In this document: one piece after another, positions 4,663-26,827 of the stretch | Layout: every line of letters begins with the position of its first letter | Position numbering within the stretch: the stretch's first letter is position 1 | NCBI GenBank assembly: GCA_030295235.1 | Contig: AP026138.1 | Location: 62,001-126,000 of the forward strand | Length of the DNA stretch: 64,000 nucleotides | Origin: Fistulifera solaris | Taxonomy: Eukaryota | Reading direction: 5' to 3' | Notes under the pieces: model-generated | What the model was told of the DNA's origin: nothing | The model's input: only the letters and a program-made list of their open reading frames with translations | Databases searched by the model: none | Made by a program: the position numbers and the translations under genes

Positions 4663-6065
4663 ATGCGTGTCCTTCTTCGTCAGCCAAGAAATAATAATAG
4701 TGACGAAGAAGAAGTATACGATAGTGTTTCAGTCAGCGAAGCCGAGCAACCACAGCAGCAAGAAGAAGTCAAGTCGACACGGCCCTCCAGTCCTTTCTTA
4801 AAAGAGCCTTCTTCACCGAAAGACTTCGCAGAGTCACCAACGTCCAAGAAACGCCCACGATCGCCTCTTGATTCGAAACCTGCAGCAATCATGGTCGATG
4901 GCGGTCGTCGTCGACGATGGGACGACGAAGAACTCGTTGAAAATCAACCTCCTCTTTTCGTACGCATAATTCAAGAAGAACCCACCGCTCATCGTCGGGA
5001 GACAAAACCTTCCGAACGAGCCTTTCAAGAACAACTTAAGAAGGAACGCGGCTTGGAAATTGTCGAACAAGCGGGAGACGGGAATTGTTTGTTTCGTGCG
5101 GTCAGTTGGCAAGTCTACGGGGATGCTTCCATGCACGCCGAAATTCGAGAACGCTGTATGGATTTCATGGCCCGGGATCCCGAACATTTTGCGCCCTTTG
5201 TGGACGGAGATTTTGCTGCCTATGTAAAACGCAAACGGCGTTTGGGGGTGCACGGTAACAATCCCGAAATACAAGCCATGAGTGAATTGTTCAATCGACC
5301 CTTTGAAGTGTTTACGCCCGATCGCGGTATCGAGCCTCTCAATATCTTCCAATCCAATTACAAGACAAAGGATGTACCCATTCGTTTGTCGTATCATGAT
5401 GGGAATCATTACAATGCGGTGATAGATCCCCTAATGCCGACGGCCGGTTTGGGATTGGGGTTGCCCGGTTTACAACCCGGTTTGGCGGATCAATTGCAGC
5501 TGGCCAAGGCGGTGGTCGAATCGGATCAGTTGGCGGATGAAATTGATTTACAAAAAGTCCTGGAAGTCTCTCGAGACGATGAGTTACAGCGTGCTCTCAA
5601 AGAAAGCAGTGCATTGGCGGTGGAGAAGGTTCGTCATTTTGATACATTTTTTTCGTCCGAAAGTCGCTCACATACAAACGCTATTCCTCTTTTTTTCCTT
5701 AGATGTACGATCCGGCGGATTATATAACAGAGGGAACGGGCGACGACGACTTTGATCTAGAGCAAAAGGTTTTATTGCAGTCACTCGAAGAATATCGTCG
5801 TCAAGAGGAAGGTCAAAAACAACGAGCGAAATCGTCGAGCCCCGTGGCTGCAGCGCGGTTGCCGGAGGTCGCCGGCACGGCTTCGTTGGCAGCCTCTGCC
5901 GTAGGAGTGGCGTCTCTTCCCACGACACGGCCCATGGATGAATATCCTGCGATAGTACAAGAGCTCGTCATGAATGGATTTGAATTACGGAAAGTGGTGC
6001 ATGCCTACGAACTGATCGGTGATGATTTTAATGACTTGTTGGCCTTTTTGATGTCAAATTGTTAG
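4663..6065 (+). CDS. OTU-domain deubiquitinase (OTUD5-like) with UIM and C-terminal UBA-like domain; intron 5629-5702
   Basis: Catalytic GDGNCLFRAVS and SYHDGNHYNAV motifs, and UIM-like DDELQRALKES. A phase-0 GT..AG intron joins ORF 4663 to ORF 5703 in frame. Confidence 0.9.
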
Positions 6066-6089
6066 CTACGAACTAAGTGATGACTTAGC

Positions 6090-7569
6090 TTAATAATGTT
6101 TAGAAGAGTTGCATAAAGGTAGTTTAGGTAGTCTATAGTTTTCCTGTTTTCTTTTCCGGGCGCAATTGGCATGCGGTTCGGGCAAGCCTTTCACTTTTTC
6201 AATGTGATCTGTTTTGGTGTAACGATAATTGTGATCGCCCTTGCCCATATAATAGCGTGATGTGAGGACATCAGTCGAATAGGAGCTACTTCGGACACCA
6301 ATAAACACATCGGCATTCAATGCTAAATCAAAATTGACCACCGAATGGAGCAACGATCCGTGGTCGACTATGTCCGGATGAGCTTCGTAATACTCTTGCA
6401 CCAGACGCTCTCCGCATTCCAAGACTTGTACCTGCCGCGAACCGACCCTCCATCCCTCACGAACAAGACGATTCAATGTTTTTAAATTGTGTTGCGCATG
6501 CGCTTGGCGTTCGGAAGACTGCTTGGGTGCCATCATTCCCGCCCGTGACACGGCAATGACCAAACCAGTCACCTGTGAATAGTTGGTTTCCAACACCGTC
6601 GCGACTTGCTGCAAGATTTGGGTCAAATTGCGTTCCATATCAATCCCACAGACGTGCGCCATCATGTCCATTTCCAAGCGGGCATGCAAGACAGCATAAT
6701 GGGGTGTAGGAACACATTGCTGTGCGACCGCACGCCATTGCGGTGCCGGACGGAGGGCTCGATACACCCATTCATCGATCTGCGACAATTCCTTTCTAAG
6801 CGTGCTTTTTCTTTTCGTATACTCCAAGTAATCATTCCACAATCGTCCTGCTTGAATGCCACCGCCGTACACGACAGGATGCTGACAATGCTGAACCAGT
6901 GGTAAGAAGTCTTGTTTGCGTGGATTGAATTCTTTGAGTTGTTGTGTGGCAATATTTTTGAGGGGGATGCAAATACCCCCGTTCGAGTGCGGCTTGTTGC
7001 AACGGGTTCAAGGTTATGTTAACGATCGTTCGCGGCATTTCCCAACAATCGGAATTGTGCAAAGGTTCCGATATCAAAAGAGGCAACTGCGGATGAAATT
7101 GATTCCAAAATTCAACATCAAAGACCCATTCCATCGGTATCGGATACCATTTGGATACATTATTTGTTGAAGTGACAATTTGCGTCGACCAGAGAATCGA
7201 AGGTAAAAAGATTTGTTCCAGTTCATGCTGTTTCGCATACAAAACAAAAGCCATCCACCGTAACACTTGATTGCGATAGCCACCCAACAAGCCCGGTGGA
7301 GACAAGAGAGCTAATGTGGAATTGGGAGATTGCTGAATCGGGTGTTTCGCCTCACGAAGGAAATAAGAAAGCACATGATTGCTGCTGGAAGATAAAGTGA
7401 CGTCGAGACGATGCATCGCGAGCAGAAGACATAGTAGATAACCCGCAAAAAGGAGCAAAACGACAACATATTTTCTCCGAAAACGACAGCTCGAGAAGCG
7501 TCTTTGCGGCAACCAGCGACCGTGCTCAAGTTGTATTTGCTGCTCGTGTCGCTTCCGTACAGGACTCAT
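6090..7569 (-). CDS. GDP-fucose O-fucosyltransferase family (O-FucT/POFUT-like, GT-B fold), type II membrane protein; frameshifted near 6870-6960
   Basis: N-terminal TM (YVVVLLLFAGYLLCLLLAM). GGYRNQ, YAVLHARLEMDM and ADVFIGVRSSSYS match the fucosyltransferase motifs (GxxNQ, HxRxE, FIGxxxSTFS). Confidence 0.75.
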
Positions 7570-8022
7570 GCGTACATAGATTGGAGTATGACCATGAACG
7601 GATAAGTCGAAAAGGATCTATCTATTTGTTGACCGATTCTAGAGCAAGGTAGTCTATCATCAATATTGTCATTCATTTTTCATGTCAAAACTTCCATTGC
7701 AATTTGGTACTATACATCAAAGTGTATATTACCTTTCGTCAAGACTGGATTTCAGTCATGAACTAATCTTCTATTATTTGCCGTTTATTACTTCGCAAAA
7801 GCCATTATGCTTTGTTTGCTATAGATATTTGCGTTGTAATTCGTAAACAAACAATGATTATATACAATACATTTAGCGGTGTATTTTATAAGTACATGAA
7901 GGAAACGTATGACTCGCGCGTCGGCGATGATTCATAAGAAAAGGAAGACGAGTGAAAAATTTTGATGAGAATGTATAATAGCACTATCTCATGGATTCTG
8001 GCCGCTCGCACACAGCCAATCT

Positions 8023-11000
8023 TTACGCGAACACGTCCGGCCATTCCTCAGAAAACTCGCTGTAGCCCCAAGACTCGACATCATCCCAATTGACGATTTG
8101 CATGGACAAAGGCACGACAGCTTGCTTCGCCAGGCCGGGAGGACTCAAGACACTGCGAAGTAACTGCTTATTGTACGGTTGGTGAAGCAGATTGGTTTGA
8201 ATCCTTTGCACGACATCGAAATGGTTCTGCTCATCGCTCAAATCTCGGTCGTACTCAAACTCTTCGTACGGAATGGAATGCAGGGCAAAATAGTTTCGAG
8301 CTTGTTTGTAGTAGCGGGTCGTCTTTTCAATGAACTCCTCTAGTTCCGACCGATCAATCTCGATGGCATCCTCTTCTGTGGTTCCAACGTTCGTCCACTT
8401 CTTCCTTGCCTTGGCAATCTGGAATGAAACGAAGATTTCTAGCATGTTCCGCCTCCAAAGAACCACATACTCTGTCTCCATGTCGGAAAACAAAGACATG
8501 AACCGCTGTATAGTGGTATTCATCAGCCGTGTAATCTGATCGGGGAAAACCTTCAGGACGAAGTACGCCTGTGGAAGATGCGACGGAATGCGATGAATGA
8601 AATCGAGCACTGCCGCCGGATTTTCAAGTCGCTCCGAAATCACTTTTGAAGCTCTTCGATCACCTTGCGTTGAGAAGAGTTTTGGCCTAACTCTGCAAAT
8701 GCTGTCACAAAGATCTCATCAGGCGACGCGAATTTCCGTGCAGAGAGAGGGCGGTCCGCATCCCAACCACAGCCACGCTGGATCTGGTCGATAATGCGAC
8801 AGAGGACTCGTGCAATGAGCGACATGTCGTCTCCGAAAAACTCGTACATGTTTAACACATCGACCTTTGACTCTTGTCTTGTTGCAAGGTTCTTGATGAA
8901 AGCAAAGAACAGGTTTGATCCTGTGCGGGCATTGGCAACCATTAGGATCGGTTGATGACGTCGTGCACCAGTGCTCGAGGGTTCGCAAATGAAATTGGAT
9001 CGGTCTTGTTTTTGACGAAAGAACGTATCGTTTTTGAAGTGTGTTCGGCAACGTTTTTTCCAATACAAGTTCTTGTTGCAATTGGTCGTTTGATGCATTA
9101 CTGATAACTAGCGACTCACCGCCTGTTGGCACCGCCAAAATATCTGGCCATTCCTCGGAAACTTCGCTGTAGCCCCAAGATTCGACATCGTTCCAGTTGA
9201 CAATCTGTTTTGAAAGCGGCACAGCAGCTTGCTTGACTAGACCTGGTGGATCAAGTACGCCACGAAGTAGCTCCTCATTGTAAGGCTGACCCAGAAGGCT
9301 CGTTTGGATTCGCTGCACGACGTCGAAATGGTGAGCACTGTCGCTCAGATCTCGGTCGTACTCAAACTCTTCGAAAGCCATCGACTTCGAAGCGAAATAG
9401 TTACGAGCTCGCACGTAGAATAGCGCCGTCTTTTGGATGAACTTCTCCAGCTCCGAGCGATCCACTTCAATGGCATCATCTTCTGTCGTTCCTACGTTAG
9501 TCCACTTTTTCATCTGTTTGGCGATCTGGAACGACACGAAAATCTCCAGCATGTTGCGACGCCACAGAATGACGTACTTGGTCTTCATCTCGGAGAATAA
9601 TGCAATGAATTGTTCGATGGTAGTGTTCATGAGCCGGTTGACTTGATCGGGGAATACCTTCAACACAAAGTACGCTTGTGGAAGATTTGACGGAATGCGA
9701 TGAATGAAATCTAGCACACCAGCCGGATTCTCAAGTCGCTGCGATACCACGTCTTGAAGCTTCTTAATTACTCGAAGATGCGAAGGATTACCACCAAACT
9801 CAGAGAGTGCCGTTGCAAAGACTTCTTCGGGCGAAGAGAATTTGCGGTCTGCATAAGGTTTTTGTATACTCCAACCGCAACCACGTTGTAACTGGTCGAT
9901 AATGCGACAAAGAACACGCGATACCAGAGCCAAATCGTCGCCAAAGAACTCATAAAGGTTGAGGACGTTGACCGAATCTTCCTGTTTGGATGATAGATTC
10001 TTGATGAAGGCAAAGAAAAGGTTCGATCCTGTGCGAGCGTTCGCGACAATCAAAATTGGCTGGTGAGGCTTTGCGTTTTCGAGAGAAGTCCCGCAAACGA
10101 AATCAAAACTGTTGTCACGGAAGTCTGCCTTGCCGATGGGGCGAATTTCGTTCACAGCAGCAGTATCAGTCTTGCTCGTCGATACGGTAGACACCGCCAC
10201 CGCGCTATTTTCTGTGCCTGGAAGCTCTTGATGAGCAGGAAGTGCTAGAATGTTTGGCCAGTCATCCGAAACGTCGCTGTAGCCCCAGGACTTGACATCC
10301 TTCCAATTGACGATCTGTCGCGATAGTGGTACAACAGCCTGCTTAGCAAGTCCGGGTGCGTCTAAAACGCTTCGTGATAACTCTTCATCGTACGGCTGGT
10401 GGAGTAGTTCTGTTTGGATCCGTTGCACGACATCGAGATGGCGAGAGCTGTCGCTCAAGTCACGATCATACTCGAATTCCACATACGTGATCGAAGTACA
10501 ATCAAAAAAGTCTCGCGCTTCAAGGTAGAACTGAGTGGTCCTTCGAACGAACTGCTCGAGCGTCGAGCGATCCACTTCAATCGCATCGTTTTCGGTTGTT
10601 CCAACATGCGTCCACTTGTTCCTTTGCTTGGCAATCTGGAACGACACGAAAATCTCCAGCATGTTGCGGCGCCACAGAATGACGTACTGGGTCTTCATGT
10701 CGGAAAATAGAGCAGCGAACTTTTGGATGGTAGTGTTCATGAGCCGGTTGACTTGATCGGGGAATACCTTCAACACAAAGTACGCTTGCGGTAGATGGGA
10801 AGGAATACGATGAATGAAATCGAGAACGGCCGCCGGATTTTTCAATCGCTGTGATATTGCGCGCTGCAATTCGTCGATCACTTGTCGTCGGGAAGGATTG
10901 GCACCAAACTCCGAGAGTGCGGCTTGGAACACTTCATCGGGTGATGCAAACTTTCGATCATAGTAAACGTTTTGCATTTCCCAACCGCATCCTTTTGAAT

Positions 11001-13608
11001 CTGGTCAATGATGCGAGAAAGAACACGTGCAATGAGACTCATATCGTCCCCGAAAAACTCGTACAGGTCGAGGACGTCCACTGCGGAATCTTGTTTGGAA
11101 GCGAGACCCTTGATGAAGCCGAAGAATAAATTGGATCCTGTTCTAGCGTTGGCAACGATCAAGATCGGTTCATGGGGAATCAGGTCGTTTCGAGTTGCTT
11201 GGCAGATAAAATCCACGCCGTCGTCGTTATTGTGGAGGTCCACCTTGCGGATAGGACGCAGCTGATTCAAAGTATCTTGCGAGGCTTGTTTCGCAACAAC
11301 AAGATCCGTCATGATCTCGGTCGTTCCAAACGATTCTTCTTGGGAAGGCAGCGCCAATACATCGGGCCATTCTTCCGCGAATTCACTGTAGCCCCAAGAT
11401 TCCACATCGTACCAATTGACAACTTGCATCGAGAGGGGCACCAGCGCTTGTTTGGTCGTTCGGGGACCATCCAGTACGGCACGAAGCAATTGCTCATTGT
11501 AGGGTTGATGGAGAAGGTTATTTTGTATTCGCCGCACGACCTCCAAATGCTGCTGTTCTTCCCTCAAATCGCGATTGTATTCGAATTCTTCAAACGGAAT
11601 CGAGTTGGACACCAGGTAGTCTCGGGCTTGCCAATAATAACGCGTCGTCTTTTGGATGAACTGCACCAGTTCCGGACGTCGAACCGCAATGGCGTCTTCT
11701 TGCGTTGTACCAATATTCGTCCACTTCTTTCGTTGTTTCGCGATTTGGAAAGAAACGAACGATTCCAGCATGTTGCGGCGCCACAAAAGGACGTATTGGG
11801 TTTCCATGTGAGCGAACAGTGATACGAAATCGTCAATGGTCGTTTTCATGAGACGGTCCACTTGATCGGGGAATACCTTCAAGACAAAGTACGCTTGCGG
11901 TAGATGAGACGGAATGCGATGTATGAAATCGAGCACACCGGCGGGATGTTCCAGACGATGGACGATGACCCGTTGCAGTTCCTCAATGACGTGTCGTCGG
12001 GACGCGTGTGTACCGAGTTCTTCGAGTGCCGTCTCTAACACGGTGGCCGGCGAAGAGAATTTCCGCGTGGCATACCGTTGGTGGGTCGTCTCCCATCCAC
12101 ACCCGAGTTGAATGCGATCCACAATTTGACAAAGGACGCGTGCTAGGAGCGCCATGTCATCGCCAAAGAATTCGTACAAATTGAGGACATCGACTGCAGA
12201 TTCTTGTTGAAAGGCCAAATTTTTGATAAAGGCAAAGAGCAGATTCGATCCCGTCCGCGTATTGGCAACAATCAATATGGGTTGATGCGGTTTGGCTCCC
12301 TGGCGCGTAGTTGGACAAATGGAATCGAAAAAATCATCGTAGTCTTGAATTTCCACCGCGGGCGTAACATCTTGTAGTATCGGTTCCTTTTTGGTACTCA
12401 TTATTGTTTCCGTCGTATAGGACGGCGAAAACAGATCGGGCCATTGTTCGGTCGATTCGGCATATCCCCACGATGCGACATCCGCCCAATTGACAATTTG
12501 TTGCGAGACCGGCACGAGTGCTTGTTTTGTCGTCCCCGGTTGTTCCAACACCTTTTGGATGACGGTTGCGTCGTGCGTTTGCTGCAAGATTTGGGTATGA
12601 ATGCGTTCCAGGACCGCCGCATGCTGTTGCGGGTCGCGCAAATCCCGATCGTATTCAAATTCTTCGAAAGAAATGGCGTGTTGCGTCCAATAGTTTCGCG
12701 CCTGTAGGTAAAAAATCGGCCGTGTGTTGAACAAACCAATCGAGTTCGGATTTTGTCACGGCAATAGCATCATCTTCTTTGGTACCGACATTCGTCCACT
12801 GTTTTCGTTGTTTCGCAATCTGAAAGGAAACAAAGGTTTCGAGCATGTTGCGTCGCCACAAGAGGACGTATTGGGTATCCAAATCGGTCCATAACTGCAA
12901 GAAATCCGCCACGGACAGTTGCAATTTGTCGCTCAAATGGTAAGGAAACACTTTGAGGACAAAAAACGGTTGTAACGAGCGTGACGGGATACGATGCAAG
13001 AATTGCAATAGTGCGGAAGGATGCAAGAACCGTTCCTCAAACACAGTTTCGAGTTCGTGCAAGACGTGTTGTTGGGCGGGCGTCGCATTGAATTCCGTCC
13101 GCGCCGTTTGCAAGACTTCGTCGGGTGTCGCAAATGGTCGTAACGTATATTTCTTGCGGGTATTCCATCCACAACCTTGACGCAATTGATCAATAATGCG
13201 ACAGAGGACTTGCACTAACAACGTTGCATCGTCCCCAAAGACTTCGTACAATTGCAACACTTCGACTTCCGACGAAGAGGCCGCCAAATTCTTGAGGAAA
13301 CTAAAGAAAAGGTTCGAACCCGTCCGGGCATTCGCGAGAATGACCATCGGACGATGCGGTTTCGTTCCCGCTGCCGCCGTGTGACACACAAATGGGTTCT
13401 TGTCCAACAAAGACAACGTCAAGGGCGGCGCTTGCTGTAACAGCGGATCAAACAGACTCGTGGGAACTTTGTGTCGGACAGTTTGTTGATTGGCAAGCAA
13501 ATGCTCCATGGCTTCTTGATAACTCCATTCGGTCGCAACGGAAATGAGCCACAAGACGATCACGAGCGAAATGAAACGACACGAAATCGATTTGCGGCGT
13601 TGTGCCAT
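8023..13608 (-). CDS. Giant type II membrane protein with five tandem NodH/Stf0-like sulfotransferase domains (~1,860 aa once indels are corrected)
   Basis: ATG at 13608 (MAQRRKS) followed by a TM helix. Five ~1.1 kb repeats each carry AN(A/T)RTGSNL (near 13325, 12255, 11140, 10035, 8925), FVLKVFP, LWRRNMLExFVS and KQAxVPxSxQxVNW. Split across overlapping ORFs by single-base shifts. Confidence 0.85.
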
Positions 13609-14784
13609 TATTATATGGATTGATTGCGTGTAAATGAATGAAAGAAGAAGAAACCAATGCTCTCGAATGGCTGGGAGAAGGATTGCAACAACAACAACAA
13701 CAAACAAATAAATAATCAATGTCAAAGAGTGTCAACACACGGTAACAACAACCACCCGACAAATGCCGAGGTGCTTTGGGTGGATCAGTGTTTGGCACCA
13801 AGCTTCGGCTGTTCCCTATTTCCACAGTTCCGTACTGACGCGAATTATGCCCTCACTCCGGGCTATTGTCAAGGGCATAGTTCTTGTAGGAATTTCCGTT
13901 GCATTTCACAGTTCGAATTCTCAATCATTTACAGAGATAGGGACTGCCAGTACCGATTTAGAATTTTAAATAGTAAACTGCTCTACAGTTTACTAGAAAC
14001 ACAGTTGGGACATTTTTCACAATGAACGCCAACAGGATTTTCAAATTTCGAATATCGTTCGACGAACTGTTGCTCAATAAGTAAATCGGTCCGTGAATGA
14101 AGGGGGCAAGATTCCAACTGGAACATTCGACATTCCCGCATTGCACTGTTATGAAGCATACTCCTGCGCAGGGCCTAAATCGAAAAGAGTGGCCATCTGA
14201 CAAGCATTTTCGGAAACTGTGTAGTCAATTATCGAACGGGGCACGGCTAAGGCTCAATAATTAGCTTTTTAAAACCGTACTTATGTTACTTATTAGAAAA
14301 AGAAGAGCTTCGTTTGGCTTCCGTTTCTCTAACGCGAAACGCGCACCGTTCATCGAAAAAAGGGATTGGCTAAGGTATAGTGTTTATTGGCTATAAACTA
14401 CTCGAGTATAAGGTTATTAACAGGCTGCCAGATGCCAGCAATAGGGAAGGGAGATCGATTAATAATCGACTTGAGAATTATAGTCGCAAGTCGCAACTGT
14501 TATGGTTCAGACTCCGAGCTTGAATTTTGAACAAGCAACAGATAACCAAAGGCAACAACGCCACAATTTACAACAGCTCGAAAACTAGGGAGAATCCTCA
14601 AATGCCAAATATCCTAAATAATACTCTTTGCCTACAGTTGCAGTCTCGGGCCAGGGAGTCTCCAACTAGGTATGGTGGTCACGTGCTTGGCTTCGCATCG
14701 AGCTAGGTACGGCTCGCAAGTTCGATTCTAATTTTAGGTCAGTGATGGATCAAAACATATATCATTCCTAGTCTACATACAGCA

Positions 14785-15977
14785 TTATAATTCTTGTTGT
14801 TCGATGCGATAATACAGCATTTGACTCCACAATTGATGCGGTCCGGGCAAACAAAAGTGCGTCCCATCAAAACTCGCATCCGCCCGCGCCAACATGAGCG
14901 GCGCCGTATCCAAAATTTGAAACGGACGTCGCCGTTTTTCACTGGCGAGAATCCGCAACAACAATTTATTTTGCATGGGTTGTTCCGGGGAATTGCCGCC
15001 ATAGAGACTCCATTTGGCGTGCATGTTGGTTGGGAACCGCCGGCTTGCGAAGAATTCGTATTCCAATCGCCAGCGCCGCGGAGAAAATGCCGTGGTTCGG
15101 TCGTTCGAACAAAAATGTGGGAATCGGGCAAATGACCGTAACGGAGATCCTGCAAATGCGACAGGAGTTTCGTGTAATTGGTGCTCCATTCCGGTCCTTT
15201 CACGCCGCGTCCACAATGATGTCCGTAATTCATGACCAAATAATCGTGCGGTTGCGCGTTTTGTAAGAAGGTCGGTACTTGCGGCAATGCTTCACCACAA
15301 AAATCCGCCAAGCGTTGAATGGTGCGTTCCGCTTCTTCCTGCGAATAATCCAAAATGTGCATTAGTTCACACCGCAAGACTTGCGCCCATTGTCGTGTGA
15401 CACTATCGCCGATCAAATAAATGGTCCGATTGTGCAACAATTTTCGCACACGCTCTTTGTATATCGCAGCATCATACGGTAACACTTGATACGGACCATA
15501 ATCGGATTCCCAAACCCAGGGATCACTCGCATTCAATATACCGGGACTGTTGGCGACGGCTTGTTTCAAAATCGCGCGATGACGGGATTGTTTCGCCTTG
15601 TCGTTACTGTATTTCCACGCATCGGGATCGTGACAATTCCCTTGTCGTTCTTGATCCAGACATTGCAAATGTGCGGTCGAATATTGCAAAGCTTGATGCG
15701 GTCGATGCACCCATCGTCCGGCGGCGGAAGCGGCTTCCGGTGTGCTGTGCACCCGCCACAACAAATCATATTCGGGAAGAGCTGTTGTTGTTGCTGCAAG
15801 ATCCGAAGAGTCTTTTGATATAGGAGATTGAGAAACGGGCGGAAGGATGGTTTGAAGAAAGGAAACCAGACAGGAATAGTAGACGGTCAACACTGTCACG
15901 GCGGCAAAGACACGAACGATCCACGTCATGGTGTTGTTGCGTAATAAAAGAGAGCGCCAGAAAAGAAAAGTTGTCAT
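14785..15977 (-). CDS. PC-esterase/TBL-like SGNH O-acyltransferase, type II membrane protein; frameshift near 15030
   Basis: N-terminal TM, IYLIGDSVTRQW (GDS motif), LVMNYGHH, and C-terminal FDGTHFCLPGP (DxxHxCxPG motif of TBL/PC-esterases). Confidence 0.8.
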
Positions 15978-17413
15978 GAGCGATGAATAAGATGAAAAGG
16001 AAAAGGACGATAAGTTATATTAGAAGGATCAAGAAGGAATGGACGCACGAGCGAGGCAATGCAAAAGACAAAGTGTTGATGTTTGATTTTGTTGTTCGTC
16101 TCCGTTTTTCCATGCGGTTCTCGAAGAAAGAAGCACTGTCCACTGTCGCTCTGGGTGTAATAAGTGTTATAGGCCAATCACGAATTCTTATGTCACACAG
16201 TATCAGTGGTACTTTTGCTGTAAAATCAAAAAGGGGGCTTATGGTTTCCAACAACTGGGATGAAAAAAAAGAAGGAAATAACACGGGATGAGGGATGAGT
16301 GCCTTTGTAAATCGTCCAGCAAAAGTCCAAACACAAAAAATAATCCACAATGCAAACATCTACTTTATATCAGAGTGTAGTAGAGGGAACTGCATCAAGA
16401 CTGGATTTCGCGAGGAGTCACGCGCTGAATCTCTAAACCTAAAGATGATTTTCTTTTTGTTATATATCGTGATTTTCGCATGGATAATCACTCACTTGTA
16501 ACTTGTAACTGTCATCGAGCACATACCGAAAATGGGGAACTGGATTGCCGACGAGCCGTCATCTCTAGCTAGAGAACGATGGTTGCCGTTTGCTACCGTA
16601 AAGAACGTCATCGAATGGCAGCATGAATTAAGTTTCAGCAACAGTAGATGTCGAAATCACAATGCATCCGCCATCGGATACCTAAAGGCGAATTGTTGCC
16701 CCGAACAGGCCAAGCTTTGCGGCACTGGCGTCCGCGGCTATACAGCGTGACTGCACTTCCGTCATGAGTTACGACTTTTCGAGGCTCTCTGCTACCTATT
16801 GACGTTCCTCCTGCTTGATACAACTTTGTCATTTACGTAAAGCTTCATTGCAACTCAAATTTTTAAATGCATCTCCCTGTTTGTATCGCGATCAGCGTAA
16901 CAAATCGATGTTCCCCAACTTTACTACTCCGGAGTATATACATTCGGAGTGTAAACGACCTTTGTCCACGACTGCATTCAGTCATGAATTCATTCAGCTA
17001 GAGACTAGAGACACCCAAATTTTATACCTAAGCACCGATCGCTCTGCAAGCTTGCTGAGCTCACGAAAGTTGCGAAGCTCATAGCAACCCAGCATTGCTT
17101 GCTTTTTGTTTCTTGCGTGGAATTCGACTAATTCTTTCGAAAAATAGCACCTGCACCTCACTTAAAATATACTATAGAAAGAAGGTGTAGTAGAGTTTCA
17201 CGACAAAATCCATCCGCACTTTTTTTTGCTGCGACCTTATTATTTGCTGCGACGACGCGATACCTCGTTTGACGATGATCACTTTCATGAAACGAGATCA
17301 AGTTAAAATTACCATCACAATCGTACAATAACAAAAAGAATGGACTTAAATAACACACATACTAGAGAACCTACTGAAATTTGAGCGAAAACGACGCTGA
17401 AAATGAAGAGAAT

Positions 17414-19833
17414 TCAAAGCCTTGACACCGCCGTTGTGTTGGTCGACTCGGCAAACAAATCCGGCCATTCTTCCGCTACCGCACTGTATCCCCACGACTT
17501 TACTTCATCCCAATTTTGAATCTGCGCAAAAACAGGCACAGTGGCCTGTTTGGCTAAGTGGGGATACGCAAAGACATCTTGAATGACTTGCTCATCGGAA
17601 GGAAGATGCAACAGTACGCTTTGAATCTTCCGGGCAATATTCGGATGACCTTTCTCGTCGACCAAATCTCGATTGTATTCAAATACGTGGTACGGAATGG
17701 ATTTGCTATCAAAATAATCTCGCGCCTGTGTGAAATAGCTGACGAAGTTTTGAATGTACCAATCGAGTTCGGGACGCTGAATGGTGATAGCGTGTTCTTG
17801 GCTGGTTCCCTGGAGCGTCCACCCATTCGTTCGCTGAGCGATGTTTGCGGAAACGAAGATTTCCAGTACGTTGCGTCGCCACAGGACGACGTATTCGGGG
17901 CTCATGTCGGCGAAAATGGAAGCATATTCTGCGACTGTCGTTTTCATCTGATGAAAGATGTAATAAGGGAATACCTTCAAAGCAAAGAAGGGCTTCGGTA
18001 ACAACGAAGGAATTCGGTGAATGAAGTTCATGAAACCCGCTGGCTTGCTGTAGCGCTCCGTGAACGCCTTTTGCAGTTCTTTTAAAACGGTTTGTTGCGA
18101 AGACATGTTGAATTCTGCGAATGCCGCCGTAAAAAGTTCTTTCGGAGACGCAAATGTGCGGTCAACATACGATTCAGTATCAGTATTCCACCCGCAACCA
18201 CGTCGGATATGATCGATGATTTGAGAGAGGCCATTGACATGAATGTTGAGCTGTTCCGCGTAAACTTCGTAGAGCAGTATGCCGTCGACTTGGTCCACGT
18301 GTCTCTCAGCCAAGCGACCGATGAAGCTAAAGAAAAGATTCGATCCAGTTCGTGCATGAGAGATCAACACGATGGGCTGATGGCGCTTTGCCGTGGCAGG
18401 CGCGGTCTCGCAAACGAAATATTGCTCTTCTTTGTTGCGTGGCTGGCTTTCCTGGACAACAATTCGCTTTTCCGATCTTAATTCATCGTCAACGGCGGAG
18501 GCCTTATTGTTTGCTGTGATCGTCAAGATCTTTTTGGGAAACAGATTTGGCCATTCTTCCGCTACCGCGCTGTACCCCCACGACTTTACTTCATTCCAAT
18601 TCTGGATCTGCTCCGAAATAGGCACAGTGGCCTGTTTGGCTAAATGGGGATACGCAAAGACATCTCGAATGACTTGTTCGTCGGAAGGAAGATGCAACAG
18701 TTCGCTTTGTATCTTCCGGGCAATATTCGGATGGCCTTTCTCGTCGACCATATCTCGATTGTACTCGTATTCATGATAGGGAATGGATTTGCCATCGAAA
18801 TAGTCTCGCGCTTGTTTGTAGAAACCGACAATATTCTGAATATACCATTCTAGCTCAGGGCGTTGAATGGCGATGGCGTCATCTTTGGTGGTTCCCTGGA
18901 GCGTCCATCCGCCACTCTTCTGCTTAGCGATCTTCAGCGAAACGAAGATTTCCAGTATGTTGCGTCGCCACAGGACGACATATTCCGGGTTCATGTCGGC
19001 AAAATGGCAGCGTACTCCGCTACTGTCATATTCATTTGATCAAAAATATGATAGGGGAATACTTTTAATGCAAAGAAGGGCTTCGGTAGCAAGGAAGGAA
19101 TACGGTGAATGAACTGCATAAACCCAGCTGGCTTGCTGTAGCGTTCAGCGAACACCTGTTGCAATTCTCGTAAAACGGTTTGCTGCGAAGACATGTCGTT
19201 GAAATCTGCAAATGCCGCCGTAAAAAGTTTTTTCGGTGACGCAAATTTGCGATCAACGTACATCTCGGCGTTTGTATTCCACCCACAACCACGTTGGATA
19301 TGATCGATAATCTGAGAAAGGCTTTGGACTTGAATATCGAGCTCGTCCGCGTACACTTCATACAGCATTATGCCGTCGACTTGTTTTTCGTCTTTCTCGG
19401 CCAATCGCCCGATGAAACTAAAGAATAAGTTTGATCCGGTTCGCGAGTTAGATACCATGACGATGGGCTGATGACGCTTTGCCATATCGGGTGCTGTCTC
19501 GCAGACGAAGAAATGCTTCTCTTCGTTTTTCAGTTTTCGGCCGTCTTCAGTCTGAGCCAGCTGCTCTGCTTCGATGTTAGACTTCACGCCTTGTTCCTTT
19601 CGCAGATTGTTTTGTCGGACGACGACCTGCGTTTCCTGTGAATGCTCCTGAACAATCATTTTTACGGGAACCATGGGAAGTGAAGCATCCTTTTCCCTCT
19701 GAAACATGTTCTGCTGTTCCGAGAGAATGATTTCGAAAAATGCTCGGGAGCTCCATTCGGTGGCTATCGAGACGCACCAAACCGAGCAGAGGAGTGCCAA
19801 CAGGCTGTGTGGATACGTTTTTGGACGACGCAT
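17414..19833 (-). CDS. Two-domain NodH/Stf0-like sulfotransferase, type II membrane protein; frameshift near 19000
   Basis: ATG at 19833 (MRRPKTY) and a TM ending SIATEWS. SNSRTGSNLFF and SHARTGSNLFF motifs, each followed by FALKVFP and LWRRN(I/V)LEIFVS. Confidence 0.85.
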
Positions 19834-21171
19834 ATGTTTAGTACGGATGAAGCGTGTAACGATCAGCAATGTTTGGGTCAATTGCAGTGATGAGATGAAC
19901 GGCATGAGATGGTGAATGCGACGTCTCGATGATCAGTGGATGTGGATACGAATCGACTGACTTTTGTTTTTGTGGCACGCTGCTCCCTCTTCGAGCAATA
20001 TTTCTGAATGTTTGGGTTTATCGTTGATCGTTGCTCGTCTAGCAGGGGCTGTTTACTTTAGCTCTGTGACCTTTGTTTGTGACAGACGAAAAAAATGTCG
20101 GGATCACGCAGTAGAGACTATGAATTATGTATTCAGCATTCAGCCAGTGAGTGTGGTGCACCGTATTGCCGATCTGTTCACTGTTCACCGAAAGACACAC
20201 AGCTTATTCGCAATTATCTACTTTTTACGGTCTTCTTTTGGCACGCTTATAAGAAGCAAGAAGACGGGGATAGAGATGAGAAATTGAACATGAAGAATGA
20301 AGGTTGAAGGTGCTGATGACTGATGATACATGAAACGGGGTAACTTGAAATAATAGGAAATTACAAGCATCTAGTAATTTTACGGAGTATAACAATGCCA
20401 GGTGCCAGGTAAGATACCAGGTAAGGGGTAAGGGTTTGCAATTTGCATCTCTAGTAGGTAAGTTAGTAAGCATTAGTTGCTGGTTGACGCCTCTCCGCTT
20501 CCGCTCACCTTTCTCCGTTTGTCGTACTTTTGTGCCATGGGCCATGGGTGCCATTATCCATTATCCATTGGAAATTGGAACACTAGACTAGACTTATAAG
20601 TTAAAGCCAAGATTGGGAACTGGGAGCCAGAAGCCAGAAGCCAGAACCCATAAATTTGTAGGAAGTGTTTGGCATTTATTATGTAAAGCATAAAGCATGT
20701 CAAAGGTTGACGTATCATCAATCATGAAAAATGTGCTCGGAGTATCAATGATAAATGTTAAGCCATCCGAACTCGAATTCAGTCGAAAGCCGAGCTACAG
20801 GCTACGCAGTAACATTTGCTCATTGCATGCAGAATGCAGAGGAGTCGTCAGTTTTAACTTTTAACGGCTTTCAGGAAAGAAACAATGACAATATTTACAA
20901 ATAATAAAAGCTAAGCCGCAATCCGCTATCCGCAATTTTTAGCCATGGCAGTCGTGATAGTGATAGGCCTAAACTATTATTCCCGATGTAGCTGAAGCCC
21001 TTTTGCCTTACCCTCTAAGCCGATACTGGTACTTGGTACAAGCACAACAAATTGATAAATAATTTCGGGTGAGCTCCTGCATAAAATTAGCTGATTCTTG
21101 CAACACGAATTAGAACGACTTGTTGTTTTGTGGTTATCAGTAATGTTCCATGTGCCTCGTGTATCTTGAAC

Positions 21172-23655
21172 CTAGGCTAAGTGCCCCGGGAACAAATTCT
21201 CCCACTCATCAAGAGGACGGTTATATCCCCATTCGACTACGTTATTCCAGTTCACAACTTGTTCGTTCAGTGGTAAAGTAGCTTGCTTTGTCGTCCATAA
21301 CCCCTGCATAACATCGTTGGTGACCTTCGAATCAGGCCTATGCTGCAAAAGGTGCTGCAAATGACGAATTGTTTCTTGTTGACGCGACTCCTCGGACAAG
21401 TCTGTCTGATACTCGAACGCGGTATAGGTCACATTGTTTTTCGCGAAAGCTGTCTTGATCTGGTGATAAAAGTATGTTGTCGACGCCACATAGTTTTCAA
21501 AGGCGGTCTTGTCGACCTGAATAGCATTCTCGGCTGTAACTTCTACGTTCATCCAGTGATTTGTGGAAAGCGCAATTTGCAAAGATACATAGGCCTCCAA
21601 CAAATTTCGTCGCCACAAGACGATCACCACCGCATCTCGAGGAATTTGTGCGATGAATGGCTCTATCGAATCTCCTAGATGCTCTGGAAATACTTTGAGC
21701 GCGAAGTAGGACTGCTTGGGCGATGGAATTCCTTGCAGGAATCGTATTAACGCCATGGGATCGTCATGTCTTTTTTGAAATTGGTCCTGGAGTTTCTGAA
21801 ACAGTTCCGTTCCGCTGTGTTCGGTCATTAACGATACAAACATATCCTCGGGCGCCCGGAACTCTTGATACTTTGGAAAATATTTCATGGCTCGGTCACC
21901 CATCTGACACTTGTCCTTTAAATGATCGATAATCTGGGACAAAGCAAATAGCTTCAAAGAATCACTGGCTTGCGGACTGAGTAATTCCACTAGGTTCAGC
22001 ATATCAGCATCGGGCCAAACGATACCGAGCATTGCCAAAAAGTTAAACAGCAAGTTCGACCCAGTCCTTGGTGTCCCAAAAACGAAAATAGGCCGATGAG
22101 AATTCTCTTCCGTAGTAGGGCAGATGAACCTTTGACTCTCCATATCGTTTGTCACCGGACTTTCAGTTATGGTTGTATCGTTTACTGGTATATCGACGGG
22201 AGCGTCCGGAACGGATTCGATTCCAAACAGATCATCTGACCACGTTTCTTTGTATCCCCAATCGTCTCGTAGCTGATTCCAGTTCAATATTTGATCCGGC
22301 AGTGGAGCGTCCTTGACAAAGTCGGGCAATTGTAAATGCTGTTGTGTCGCTGGCAACTGCAACAACGATTGTAGCTTACTCCACGTCGATAATAGCTCAC
22401 TGGCACTCGCGAGATCGCGATGATATTCGAGTAGCAAGGATTGTTTCGGTGCCTTGGTTTGCAAGAAGTATCGGATTTTCCCAAAATATTCTTTCGTCTG
22501 TCCCACATAGCGTTCCATCGGTTCTTGTTCTACCACCATCTTGCTTTCGGCGGGCCAATCAGTGGAATGCTCTTCCAACAGGACACGCTGGTGCGCCGCG
22601 TACGATTGCAACAAATGCTGTCGATAGATGACCACAAAGGCACTGTCGTGTTCTTGCAATTCGAGCAAGAAGGCCTCGAGTGGCATATGAAAATGCTTCC
22701 ACTCTTCGCGTTGCAACAAAAAGACAAAATGGGAATGGACCGACGGAATTCGGCGAATAAAGGCCAACCATTGCCACGGCCGCAAAAAGCGATTTTGAAA
22801 TTTGCGCATCAATTCGAGGTACAAGTCGCGGCCGCTGGATTCGGTCATGAGTTGGGCAAAGAGGGCGTGAATGTCTTGTCCAAAGGTGTCTTGTTGCGGC
22901 GTGTACCATACGTCCGGATCGCCGATCTGACAATTTTGTTTCAATTGATCAATCAAACGAACCAGTAGTGGTACTTGCTGTCGATCGTCGGCAAACAAAT
23001 CCGACAATACCAAGAGATGCGGATCTTGGGCCATGATCTGCAACAGAGTCTCGGCCCCGGAATGGGCTTGTGTTAATAGGACAATTGGTTGATGTAGGTG
23101 AAATTCCGCGGACTCGGCCACGGGACAAAGAAAGGGATTCTTGTCGTTCGTCGTCTCGTCAGCATTGTTGCGTTGTGGAATGGAGTTCTGGGGCGGTGGT
23201 GGCATTTTCTTTGTTGTGGCGGGCGTCGTTGGTTTCTTTTCTTGACCGAGCCGTTTCGGTCGTTCTTTGACGCGTCGCTCCTCCACGGCGCGATACACGA
23301 CTTGCGGTTGATGATGATGATTGAGTTCGGGAGAAGGAACGTACGGATGTCGTAATAAAGTCGTAATACTCCAAACGCTAAAGAGCAAACTGGCCATGCC
23401 AAACAACACAAAGGCCGGATTTTTGACTATCATGATATCTTCGTGCGGTGTTTTTCGTCGATACGGAGTACTACTGTGATTTGAATTGTTGAGAGAAAGC
23501 TTTTGACGCAAGGAATTGGAACGAAATAGGAAATTACGAGCATTGTTGGAGGAAGGCGGTCGTTGCGATGACTCCGTGACATCTTGTTGTTGCAACGGCA
23601 GCATAAAGTAATCCGCCGATTTGCTGCGTCCGATCGTTCGTTTCCGTGTACTCAT
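21172..23655 (-). CDS. Two-domain NodH/Stf0-like sulfotransferase, first domain degenerate
   Basis: Intact 827 aa ORF with TM (FVLFGMASLLFSVWSITTLL). Domain 2 has GTPRTGSNLL, FALKVFP and LWRRNLLEAYVS. Domain 1 has the divergent TQAHSGAETL. Confidence 0.88.
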   Translation of the reverse strand: MSTRKRTIGRSKSADYFMLPLQQQDVTESSQRPPSSNNARNFLFRSNSLRQKLSLNNSNHSSTPYRRKTPHEDIMIVKNPAFVLFGMASLLFSVWSITTLLRHPYVPSPELNHHHQPQVVYRAVEERRVKERPKRLGQEKKPTTPATTKKMPPPPQNSIPQRNNADETTNDKNPFLCPVAESAEFHLHQPIVLLTQAHSGAETLLQIMAQDPHLLVLSDLFADDRQQVPLLVRLIDQLKQNCQIGDPDVWYTPQQDTFGQDIHALFAQLMTESSGRDLYLELMRKFQNRFLRPWQWLAFIRRIPSVHSHFVFLLQREEWKHFHMPLEAFLLELQEHDSAFVVIYRQHLLQSYAAHQRVLLEEHSTDWPAESKMVVEQEPMERYVGQTKEYFGKIRYFLQTKAPKQSLLLEYHRDLASASELLSTWSKLQSLLQLPATQQHLQLPDFVKDAPLPDQILNWNQLRDDWGYKETWSDDLFGIESVPDAPVDIPVNDTTITESPVTNDMESQRFICPTTEENSHRPIFVFGTPRTGSNLLFNFLAMLGIVWPDADMLNLVELLSPQASDSLKLFALSQIIDHLKDKCQMGDRAMKYFPKYQEFRAPEDMFVSLMTEHSGTELFQKLQDQFQKRHDDPMALIRFLQGIPSPKQSYFALKVFPEHLGDSIEPFIAQIPRDAVVIVLWRRNLLEAYVSLQIALSTNHWMNVEVTAENAIQVDKTAFENYVASTTYFYHQIKTAFAKNNVTYTAFEYQTDLSEESRQQETIRHLQHLLQHRPDSKVTNDVMQGLWTTKQATLPLNEQVVNWNNVVEWGYNRPLDEWENLFPGHLA

Positions 23656-24112
23656 AGTTCGCTTCAGGTGACGTTAAGAGAAACGATGTTGTGACGATAG
23701 ACGACCTTTGGGTCGCAATCTTTCTTGGAGCAGCGAAGGAATACTCCGCCGCACCGATAATAATGAAACGAAAAAAGGGGGTCAAAAAAGCGCGCGCCGC
23801 GAGGCCAACATTGCCCCCTACAAAAAAGTGTAGAAAGAAGTCGACCCGGGACTCAGGTTCTACTAGAGTATCCAGAAAGCAGTAGGAACTTCTCCATAAT
23901 TTCTGTCTTCGATGACTGTTATTGTGACCGAAACAAGACCGAATCCAGTCCGGGACTGACGGAGTCACATGGCGCATGGCGGCGGGCGGCGGATGACGAT
24001 GATAAAAAGCGCAACACAATAAGACACAAGATCTTGTTTTTCGTCTCTCGCCCTACCAGACTAATATTATTATTCATTCTCCTCACTATTCATGTTTCCT
24101 TCACACACAATC

Positions 24113-25644
24113 ATGACGCGACACAAAGCGTTTGCCTGCCTACTAGCTTCGTTGGTTGTTTCGGGTTTATTTTGGTTGAATTCGTTCAACACACAATGGG
24201 AAAAACGACTGATTTCACCGACGGTCGAGCAACTCATGATGCAGGACGACGCTGCGGCAACCAATAGTCCTACTGTATCTCCGGCTTTACTTCCGGAGTT
24301 ACAACCAGAAGAACAAGAGGAATACGGGGAGGAATACGAACTGGAAATAGTTGACGAGGAAGAGGAGGAAGACGAACAGAATATAGACGACGAGGAAGAC
24401 GAGGGAGATGAACACTACATAGACGAGGAAGAGTACGAAGAAGAAAAATACAAACACGCAGAAGAAGAGAAGGAAGAAGGACAATACGAAAAGAAGAGGA
24501 GGAACATGAAGAGGAGCCCCCAATGATTGGAAACAATTTCTGAAGAAGAGGAAGCTTTAATAGATGATTACGAAGATTCCGATGTTGAAAGTTCTTCACC
24601 GTCATCGGAGATGGAAACGAGTTCGGGGGATGAACTGATGGAAGATGACGAAAATTCGGCTCTCGAAACGACATCAACGATGGTTCCTGCGTACACGTTC
24701 CTTTGCGACACGGCCCCGCCTCACGCACAACCCTTCGAGCCGATCATCATGATGGCAAATGCACGAACGGGCTCCAATCTTTTTTTTAGTTTTCTCGGAC
24801 GCTTGGCCCTCTTCAACATGGATCTACTGCCACTCTATGAAATCTTTGGGAATGATTCACGATTGTTGGCACAATTGCTGAATAATATCGTGGAACAAAT
24901 TGAAACAGGATGTCAATGGGAGGACTTTGTCGTCGATCGAACCGCGACGGATCCCGAACAACTCTTTGCGGCAATGGCCACCAGCAGTGATTCGACTCAA
25001 CAACGGATATTGGAAGAATTGCAACATGTCTTCACCCACCGTTTAGAAGATCCGGCGCCCTTTTGGAATTCTTGCACCGCATTCCATCGACCATGCCACG
25101 GGCCTACTATGCCTTGAAAGTGTTTCCGTTTCATGTCTTGGATTTGATGAAGATGACCGTCACCGATTTCTTGGCCTTGTTCGAGAGTATGCCCGAGACG
25201 CAATACATACTACTGTGGCGACGCAACATGCTGGAAATCTTTGTTTCCTTCAAGATTGCTCTCACACGCCAAGGATGGGTCAACGTCGCTTCGACGCAAG
25301 ACAATGCCGTGCAAGTGGATCGTACCGAATTGGAATGGTTCGTGCAACGTCTTGCCGACTTTTATCAACAAGCCGGCGATTATTTGTCAACCAAGTCCTG
25401 TCATATCTTTGAATACGATCAGGATTTGAGTAATGCGACCCAACAATTGAGTACCGTTCAACGCATCCAGACGGAAGTCTTGCAATTAGCTTTAAATGAA
25501 GAACAAGTGCAGATGGTCGTGGAGAAAGCCGGAACCACGAAACAAGCGGTTGTGCCATTGTCACAACAGATTGTCAATTGGGAAGAAGTGCAAGAGTGGG
25601 GATACAGTGAATCGTCCTTGGATTGGCCGAATCTATTTCCGTGA
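24113..25644 (+). CDS. Single-domain NodH/Stf0-like sulfotransferase with Glu/Asp-rich stem; indels near 24490-24525 and 25060
   Basis: ATG at 24113 (MTRHKAF), TM, acidic linker, then MANARTGSNLFF, YALKVFP, LWRRNMLEIFVS and KQAVVPLSQQIVNW. Confidence 0.82.
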
Positions 25645-26032
25645 AAAAGTGAGGACCCGTTTAATGATTCGGCAAGTCTAGTCGATGGACCGAAGCAATG
25701 GAAGTGGCTCGAACCATACTTCGTGTCCTTGAAGTAAAACTTTGAATCATCAGCGAGAAGAAACAACTTTCTTTGTGATCTTCGGTATGGAATGAAAGGT
25801 GATCTCGTTTCCGATCTGAATCGTGTTTCACCGAAAATTGGACGTGTGATTCACGGACGAAGCAAGGGAAAAAGGACGATAAGAGGGATCACGGCGAGCA
25901 TAAGATTTTCAGGAGATCCACAAATAATGCGAAGAAAACGAAATAGGTTTTGAGAACGCACTTGATGCATGATTGATTCGCATGTTCATTTCGTTTAGAA
26001 GGAACCCGATTGTGCCTACATTTGAATTGACA

Positions 26033-26827
26033 ATGGCCAAGTTTTCCAAGGACTACGCGTCGATTCCCTCCATCGCGGCCGACATCGAACATGGTCCAGA
26101 CCAGCACCGTTCTGCAACGTCGATCTACCACAGTTCCTTCCGTACACTCATCTGGGCTACGGCAGCGGTAGTGGGTCTCACGCTTCTGATTTGTTCCATG
26201 GCTCATGATTGCGGTATTTGGCAGTCGAGCCAATCAAATATGCCCATGAATGCGACGGATCCGTACGCCATGGAAGGTCGAGCCAAGTACGATGATTCGG
26301 ACATGATGTCGAAAGATGAATCCAGCCCCGTTCCGGTTGGCCCTGGAGGACCTCCGCCGCCTCTTCCACCCAAACGATTTTCGGAAGCCAGACACGGTCA
26401 CAAGAATCACAACCATGACAAGTCGCATCACCATCACCATGACGAGCCTCATCATAATCGTCATCACCATCATCATTCCAAGCAAAGTACCAAGAGTAAA
26501 GATGAACCCAGTGAAAGCGACGATGAGAAGGGATGGATGTCTTCACTTCACGCGTGGTGGAACAATATGGCAGATAAAGTCGATGAGGAGGTGCACGAGA
26601 AAGAAGATGAGAGCAATGACAAACACGACGAAGATGATAGCGATGACAAAGATGAAGATAGCGATGAAGACAGTGACAAACAAGACGAACAAAACGAAGA
26701 TGATAGCGATGATATGAAAATGGGAAACATGACGGAGGAAGAGGAATCCGTCGTCGTCGTAAAGCATGCAGCGAACGACGCGTTGAATGAACCAGATATG
26801 ACGACCGATGAAAATGGCGACAATTGA
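26033..26827 (+). CDS. Single-TM protein with His-rich and Asp/Glu-rich low-complexity domain
   Basis: ORF from MAKFSKDY with TM LIWATAAVVGLTLLICSMA, then HGHKNHNHDKSHHHHHDEPHHNRHHHHHS and an acidic tail. Confidence 0.7.
   Translation: MAKFSKDYASIPSIAADIEHGPDQHRSATSIYHSSFRTLIWATAAVVGLTLLICSMAHDCGIWQSSQSNMPMNATDPYAMEGRAKYDDSDMMSKDESSPVPVGPGGPPPPLPPKRFSEARHGHKNHNHDKSHHHHHDEPHHNRHHHHHSKQSTKSKDEPSESDDEKGWMSSLHAWWNNMADKVDEEVHEKEDESNDKHDEDDSDDKDEDSDEDSDKQDEQNEDDSDDMKMGNMTEEEESVVVVKHAANDALNEPDMTTDENGDN

Follow-up and report, generated by a model that had tools for sequence, protein, structure and literature searches.

Six adjacent genes for predicted membrane-anchored glycan-tailoring enzymes, with ten sulfotransferase domains, in the diatom Fistulifera solaris

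Arrangement and integrity of the six genes

The window analysed here is a stretch of 64,000 nucleotides (nt) of Fistulifera solaris DNA (contig AP026138.1 of assembly GCA_030295235.1, positions 62,001 to 126,000 of the forward strand), in which six adjacent genes, A to F, occupied positions 6090-25644. Gene A (6090..7569) was predicted to encode a type II anchored GT-B glycosyltransferase (GT) of the superfamily that includes the protein O-fucosyltransferases 1 and 2 (POFUT1 and POFUT2; PF10250-like). The predicted product of gene C (14785..15977) was a type II anchored PC-esterase of the trichome-birefringence-like (TBL) kind, with GDS and DxxH motifs. The remaining four genes carried ten sulfotransferase (ST) domains between them, with five in tandem in gene B (8023..13608), two in gene D (17414..19905), two in gene E (21172..23655) and one in gene F (24092..25644). 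Five of the six genes were located on the minus strand, and gene F on the plus strand. Gene E was a single intact open reading frame (ORF) of 827 amino acids, comprising a tail, an anchor and the domains E1 and E2, and the anchored protein of gene F contained an acidic low-complexity stalk in front of its ST domain. A preliminary description of the window had proposed these genes, their order and their domain counts, and all were confirmed by the ORFs, the stretches matched by an ST profile and the DNA repeat periods. It had also seen no recognisable unrelated gene between the six, and this held at the level of Pfam families, the intergenic ORFs of about 100-130 amino acids lying outside the family scan.

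The N-termini of all six proteins had a common layout, in which a Lys/Arg-rich tail of 7 to 82 residues was followed by a hydrophobic stretch of 19 residues with a mean Kyte-Doolittle value of 1.45-2.67. This layout points to single-pass type II anchoring throughout, in agreement with the topology proposed earlier. The short tail that formed part of that proposal did not hold for gene E, whose tail extends over 82 residues. The six proteins presumably reside in the Golgi.

As the window is written, gene E alone forms one open frame. The other five genes were interrupted by about 11 one-base frame breaks, namely one in A, five in B, one in C, one in D and three in F, and most of the inspected junctions adjoined short homopolymer runs (T6, A6, A4, T4, C5). 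The break in gene A was located near 6964-6977, with a further indel near 6153, and that in gene C at about 15027. The break in gene D fell at a T run near 19003, and the relative P0001 read through it. Public proteins also continued across the breaks in the other genes. P0005 (FisN_8Hh026) matched the two frame pieces of gene A at 100% and 98% identity, and P0019 (FisN_8Hh028) matched both pieces of gene C at 100%. The 1862-residue P0051 covered six frame pieces of gene B at 98.4-100% identity, except for a piece of 18 residues at 88.9%. For gene F, P0004 was 98.5% identical to the C-terminal piece, while the N-terminal piece, which is acidic and repetitive, reached 85.5%.

Contigs of three public sequencing runs (X1, X2 and X3) gave a second view of the same sites. 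They differed from the window by a 1-nt indel at 9008, 9053, 10992, 12710, 24488, 24529 and 25060, and were otherwise letter-identical to it. At least 7 of the 11 break sites were corrected in this way, among the 12 listed of 58 indel rows. The sites near 6965, 8645, 15027 and 19003 fell outside the listed rows, and contigs with gaps spanned them. Because the public proteins read through and the run contigs supply the lacking base or omit the surplus one, we attribute the frame breaks to errors in the window's assembly and conclude that the genes are intact. An exon-intron reading of the overlapping ORFs was rejected, as the protein sequence runs on across each break and leaves no space for an intron. 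No joint in the run contigs was read as an intron either, these joints having short sides or sitting on divergent contigs. Frequent one-base indels of this kind mean that a reading of the window by ORFs understates the integrity of its genes. In coverage, the X1 contigs extended over all 30 bins, intergenic DNA included, while X3 contigs were found over B, E and the 5' part of F and none over C and D. Neither pattern has a bearing on expression.

Overlapping ORFs in different frames were also observed outside the six genes, at 30535-33364, 39449-41037, 45327-47891, 54061-55133 and 57376-58913. In the fourth of these, an Aminotran_3 domain was split over two frames. Indel errors are probably present throughout the assembly of the window.

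The gene A protein was 99% identical to FisN_8Hh026 of F. solaris and 87% identical to FisN_8Lh026, and the gene C protein 100% identical to FisN_8Hh028 and 83% to FisN_8Lh028. Owing to the near-identity to FisN_8Hh026 and FisN_8Hh028, we place the window on chromosome 8, 'H' copy, of F. solaris, an allodiploid raphid diatom, or of a strain nearly identical to it. The source names of the near-identical proteins agree with the diatom origin that had been proposed. The C-terminal half of the gene F protein had 91% identity to P0003 (FisN_8Lh032), and the locus-tag numbers placed the genes of the L subgenome in the same order (8Lh026, 8Lh028 and 8Lh032, vs 8Hh026 and 8Hh028). For P0051-P0054, P0001 and P0004, assignment to H or L rests on identity and the tree rather than on locus tags. 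The wetland metagenome run X2, from 2020, contained 68% of the sampled words of window positions 14700-24699, and 53 of its 96 contigs on positions 6000-25700 matched at >=99% identity. Therefore, that environmental sample contained this organism or one very close to it.

Sulfotransferase domains and their repetition

On the minus strand, the five domains of gene B extended over 13392-12429 (B1), 12329-11355 (B2), 11210-10246 (B3), 10101-9136 (B4) and 8993-8029 (B5). Those of gene D occupied 19509-18539 (D1) and 18418-17453 (D2), and those of gene E 23133-22225 (E1) and 22128-21190 (E2). The single domain of gene F was located at 24698-25638 on the plus strand. The domains were about 320 residues long and had a conserved NWxxVxxWGY...W motif near the C-terminus.

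Conventional family searches scarcely recognised them. All window ORFs, of whichever family, scored below the Pfam gathering cut-offs, and the ST ORFs reached 18.2 bits with PF09037 (cut-off 22) and 18.9 bits with PF13469 (cut-off 27). Their best sub-threshold matches were Stf0 and Sulfotransfer_3, each with an E-value of 0.0019. An NCBIfam search with the ST domains was empty, and PDB searches with single sequences and with profiles gave chance-level matches only. We built a profile from the five domains whose frames are unbroken in the window and searched 1.84 billion representative sequences, which gave 498 proteins at E<=1e-3, 73 at E<=1e-10 and 33 at E<=1e-30. When 59 of these matches were scanned against Pfam, the close ones carried no Pfam family, and many of the distant ones (e.g. 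P0124, P0130, P0099 and P0111) passed the cut-offs of Sulfotransfer_3, Stf0 or Sulfotransfer_1. In a protein language-model atlas, the ST domain adjoined the Stf0 and Sulfotransfer_3 clusters.

Domain D2 was modelled with AlphaFold from 34 aligned sequences, with a mean predicted local distance difference test (pLDDT) score of 95.1 and a predicted template modelling score of 0.92. The top Foldseek match of the model was the CurM sulfotransferase domain (E 6.8e-5), and tyrosylprotein sulfotransferases (E 5e-4), Stf1, Stf9 and Stf0 were among the other leading matches. All of the best 50 VIA rows for D2 were sulfotransferases that use 3'-phosphoadenosine 5'-phosphosulfate (PAPS), with Z scores of 10.7-12.1 over 185-226 residues and root-mean-square deviations (rmsd) of 3.3-5.0. 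In the model, an RTGS sequence follows the first strand (residues 14-19), in the position that we take to be that of the 5'-phosphosulfate-binding motif (K/R-x-G-S/T). A second sequence, RRNxLExxVS, is located at the junction of strand 175-180 and helix 184-197, and presumably corresponds to the 3'-phosphate-binding R...S motif. Both sequences were kept in nine of the ten domains. Taken together, the model, the motifs and the profile relatives suggest that the ST domains are a divergent, Stf0/Sulfotransfer_3-like branch of the PAPS-sulfotransferase superfamily, which would use PAPS as donor.

The domain that did not keep the two motifs was E1, where HSGA replaces RTGS and RQHLLQSYAA replaces RRNxLExxVS; its companion E2 is canonical. 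The same replacements were found in the relative P0053, which is 80.7% identical to gene E over the full length of P0053, and E1 formed a very long branch in the tree of ST domains. E1 may be a conserved non-catalytic (pseudo-enzyme) domain.

The repetition of the domains was also seen in the DNA, with a period of 1107-1110 nt in gene B and of 1088-1091 nt in gene D, the latter at 79-86% nucleotide identity. P0051, the public counterpart of gene B, likewise contained five ST profile stretches. Between B2 and B4, the amino acid identity was 67%, with 0.19 nonsynonymous (pN) and 0.72 synonymous (pS, saturated) differences per site and a dN/dS of roughly 0.09. The saturated pS and the low pN indicate that the repeated domains are old and have been individually under purifying selection. 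The ST genes stem from gene duplication combined with domain duplication within genes.

The number of domains varied among relatives. P0052, likely the L-copy relative of gene B, has three domains in contrast to the five of B, and P0001 (443 residues), a relative of gene D, has one instead of two. In the tree, the first domains of gene B and P0052 paired, while domains 2-5 of B and domains 2-3 of P0052 formed one clade with 100/100 support and no internal resolution. We considered a recent gain of the extra gene B domains and dropped it, as synonymous change between B2 and B4 has reached saturation and the tree does not resolve the clade. The difference of five and three domains may reflect gain, loss or a collapsed assembly. 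The stalk of gene F (24092-24700, plus strand), between the anchor and the catalytic domain, was an acidic Glu/Asp-rich repeat, in which a 66-nt unit occurs four times within 24317-24487, at a spacing of 33-36 nt. A metagenome scan with the ST alignment returned 101 pattern matches, with no relative among them.

Genes A and C and the flanking DNA

The model of the gene A protein had a pLDDT of 71.4, and its top Foldseek match an E-value of 4.7e-7. Its closest structural relatives were POFUT1 and POFUT2, with Z scores of 17.3-18.9 over 255-284 residues. The values were 11.6-14.3 for FUT8, NodZ and AtFUT1, and did not exceed 8.5 for other GT-B folds. The sequences GGYRNQ, HARxE and SSYS were invariant or nearly so in 14 relatives of gene A, with H244, A245, R246 and E248 identical in all 14. 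We take them to be the three motifs common to the fucosyltransferase superfamily, HARxE presumably being the Arg-containing donor-binding motif HxRxx[D/E]. PF10250 (O-FucT) was detected in 12 of the 14 relatives at E<=0.01 and passed its cut-off in three (P0009, P0013 and P0017). A PDB search with a sequence profile of gene A gave no match. The fold and the motifs suggest that gene A encodes a distant member of the fucosyltransferase-type GT-B superfamily. Of the O-fucosyltransferase family named in the preliminary description, the structural part was borne out, the fold being closest to POFUT1 and POFUT2, but the PF10250 cut-off was not reached.

GDP-fucose is the most likely donor of the gene A enzyme, and to our knowledge every solved relative uses this nucleotide sugar. 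Nonetheless, the PF10250 superfamily also includes transferases of other sugars, such as plant rhamnosyltransferases, so fucose is not assured. 'Fucose-containing' is accordingly the weakest part of the earlier interpretation.

For gene C, the window's broken ORF alone scored 21.5 bits with PF13839, below the cut-off of 27, while P0019, which is identical to gene C in two frames, scored 50.9 bits. The sequences IGDSVTRQ (GDS) and DGTHFCLPGP (DxxH) were present in P0019 and in the window frames. A precomputed PF13839 assignment was found for 29 of 32 gene C relatives. The N-terminal region typical of plant TBL proteins was not detected in the gene C protein. These data support membership of gene C in the PC-esterase/TBL family and suggest a putative O-acetyltransferase. 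In plants, TBL proteins act in polysaccharide acetylation. The 'acetylated' glycan of the earlier interpretation would follow from the TBL membership and the GDS and DxxH motifs of this one protein. Checked with HMMER and Foldseek, the family assignments were supported by folds and profiles, but the window ORFs themselves remained below the Pfam gathering scores. At the superfamily level, the three enzyme families initially recognised are all supported by profiles, relatives, motifs and models.

The genes on either side of the block were unrelated to it. Upstream were genes for a PDZ protein, an unknown protein and an OTU protease, and downstream genes for an acidic His-rich membrane protein, DUF1118, LUC7 and Myb proteins. 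Directly downstream of F, the ORF 25973-26827 (plus strand) encodes one hydrophobic segment followed by a low-complexity region rich in His, Asp, Glu and Ser, with runs of H and of D/E, and had no Pfam family. Within the block, X1 and X2 contigs stopped or jumped between the intergenic positions of about 7720-7770 and 16950-16995, and the word depth at about 16976 was 190, compared with about 17 elsewhere. This suggests that a short repeated or low-complexity element flanks genes B and C on both sides, and no such element was returned at these positions by a repeat search with a minimum length of 40 nt.

Function of the block and comparison with known systems

Several relatives of the ST domains were fused to glycosyltransferases. 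P0069 and P0074 (E 1e-43 to 1e-46) combined an N-terminal GT2 domain with a C-terminal ST domain of the type in the window, and P0067 combined GT25 with such a domain and with Sulfotransfer_1. Among more distant relatives, P0089 and P0101 joined GT2 to an ST domain, and P0159 joined an ST domain to a DegT sugar aminotransferase. Because the ST relatives are fused to GT2 and GT25 glycosyltransferases, glycan acceptors appear to be favoured for the ST domains of the window.

It is quite possible, although we would not yet call it probable, that the block is a set of secretory-pathway enzymes that tailor one sulfated, secreted glycan. In this scheme, the gene A enzyme would add a sugar from a nucleotide sugar in the Golgi lumen, with GDP-fucose as the likeliest donor. 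The TBL enzyme would O-acetylate sugar hydroxyls through a Ser-Asp-His acyl-enzyme, and the ST domains would use PAPS to sulfate a secreted polysaccharide or proteoglycan, for example in mucilage, extracellular polymeric substances or a cell-wall coat. With several catalytic heads on a single anchor, sulfation would be dense or would reach several positions. The arrangement of the genes argues for such a module, in that three unrelated glycan-tailoring families form one uninterrupted block, with the TBL gene inside the ST array, between B and D, and gene A at its edge. All six proteins have one topology in common, and both subgenomes have the genes in this arrangement. A microsynteny of sulfated-glycan genes also has a precedent among stramenopiles, in brown algae (PMC11468063).

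Several observations weigh against a functional module. Four of the six genes belong to one tandemly duplicated family, so the block amounts to three independent items rather than six, and the clustering argument is carried by two unrelated neighbours. The homeologous copies are too close to each other to count as independent conservation. In seven environmental loci with relatives of gene A (41-53% identity), tblastn gave no ST or TBL match; orthology is uncertain there and the flanks are short, two of the seven being informative. In these two (L003 and L007), where the flank extends over several kb, the neighbouring genes encode bromodomain, Lips and KH-domain proteins. Folded protein modules, and not polysaccharides, are the substrates of the solved proteins closest to gene A. 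Finally, gene A and all ST domains fell under the Pfam cut-offs; for gene A, PF10250 reached 19.1 bits in P0005 and 19.5 bits in the window ORF, against a cut-off of 31.5.

A neighbourhood without common function is a real, if somewhat doubtful, alternative. In that case, an ordinary ST tandem array would have come to lie beside TBL and POFUT-like genes that act on other substrates, and all six products would be Golgi enzymes with no common pathway. Tandem and intragenic duplication would account for four of the six genes, and the linkage was not seen in either of the two informative environmental loci. Tandem arrays are described as common in diatom genomes in a passage of PMC7335047, and an excerpt of PMC10328945 reports that diatoms are enriched in sulfotransferase domains generally. 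On the other hand, the TBL gene is located within the array, and on that side the one remaining neighbour encodes a glycan enzyme as well. Such adjacency would be unlikely if 2-3% of genes encoded glycan enzymes, a rough post hoc assumption and not a computed value. The arrangement was also kept in both subgenomes.

A different question is what the enzymes act on. Targets among secreted or wall proteins or lipids, instead of a polysaccharide, seem improbable to us. Gene A would then O-fucosylate protein modules, and the STs would act on protein residues, on glycans attached to proteins (for instance silaffin-like or adhesive ones) or on glycolipids. The closeness of gene A to POFUT1 and POFUT2, at the Z scores given above, is in keeping with protein targets, as is the presence of tyrosylprotein sulfotransferases among the best Foldseek matches of the ST model. 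Diatom silaffins, moreover, are both sulfated and glycosylated. However, the ST relatives are fused to GT2 and GT25, and plant TBL proteins acetylate polysaccharides. In addition, VIA gave the tyrosylprotein sulfotransferases no edge over carbohydrate and small-molecule sulfotransferases, all with Z scores of about 11-12.

Decay of a dying tandem array into pseudogenes, which the roughly 11 frame breaks in five of six genes might suggest, is very improbable and was rejected, given the public proteins that are intact across the breaks of A, B and C, the 7 of 11 sites corrected by single-nucleotide indels in otherwise identical run contigs, the homopolymer runs beside most inspected breaks, and a pN far below pS between domains.

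Sulfated glycans, in part containing fucose, are released by diatoms in large amounts and influence carbon export. The enzymes responsible for their sulfation, acetylation or fucosylation are not known to have been assigned. It is conceivable, but on balance unlikely, that the block is the first polysaccharide-tailoring cluster recognised in a diatom. The multi-headed STs would then be a polysulfation machine on one Golgi anchor, the TBL and POFUT-like enzymes would add acetyl and deoxyhexose side groups to this polymer too (diatom mucilage or a fucose-containing sulfated polysaccharide), and the ST family, invisible to Pfam-based surveys, could supply the missing carbohydrate ST set of diatoms. 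Up to five active domains per anchor would in that event write a dense sulfate pattern. In the literature searched, which did not extend to subscription journals, we found no description of the cluster or of multi-domain diatom sulfotransferases, and no paper with phrases for tandem sulfotransferase domains.

The most interesting elements of the locus are the five-headed ST and the ST branch below the Pfam cut-offs. Five catalytic ST domains on one polypeptide are an unusual architecture that is biochemically testable. In an algal survey, carbohydrate sulfotransferases were keyed to PF00685 and PF03567, according to a passage of PMC4659905. A search of that design could miss the ST branch of the window, because the branch falls below the Pfam cut-offs. 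The structures of diatom glycans and their pathway are called open questions in an excerpt of the brown-alga paper PMC11468063. The locus offers concrete candidates for diatom glycan sulfation, acetylation and fucosylation in F. solaris, a species in which CRISPR editing has reportedly been achieved (PMC13276009).

Among known enzymes, the ST domains have the same predicted fold as Stf0 of Mycobacterium (PDB 1tex; Z 12.0 over 208 residues, rmsd 5.0) and the CurM ST domain (PDB 4gbm; Z 11.0). The P-loop-like RTGS and the R...S motif are common to the Stf0/Sulfotransfer_3 type and the window domains. They differ from Stf0 and CurM in falling below every Pfam cut-off, with about 10-13% identity to solved chains, and in belonging to type II anchored proteins with up to five ST repeats per polypeptide. 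Gene A has the GT-B fold and the motif set in common with POFUT1 (GT65) and POFUT2 (GT68), but unlike them it stays below the PF10250 cut-off and lacks a match in PDB sequence-profile searches. Gene C has the same GDS and DxxH motifs and type II anchor as plant TBL proteins (PF13839), but it aligns mainly with positions 169-282 of the profile, in the C-terminal third.

As a locus, the block has its nearest parallel in brown algae, which are likewise stramenopiles. There, microsynteny of a fucokinase/GDP-fucose pyrophosphorylase gene (FK-GFPP) with ST and hydrolase genes has been proposed, from adjacency, to serve sulfated fucan synthesis, as stated in PMC11468063 and in the abstract of PMC6418280. 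The scanned window ORFs of at least 150 amino acids included neither a fucokinase nor a GDP-fucose pyrophosphorylase. The two loci thus both bring ST genes together with fucose-related or other carbohydrate genes, but the diatom block differs from the brown-algal one in combining a multi-domain ST array with a TBL gene and a POFUT-like glycosyltransferase.

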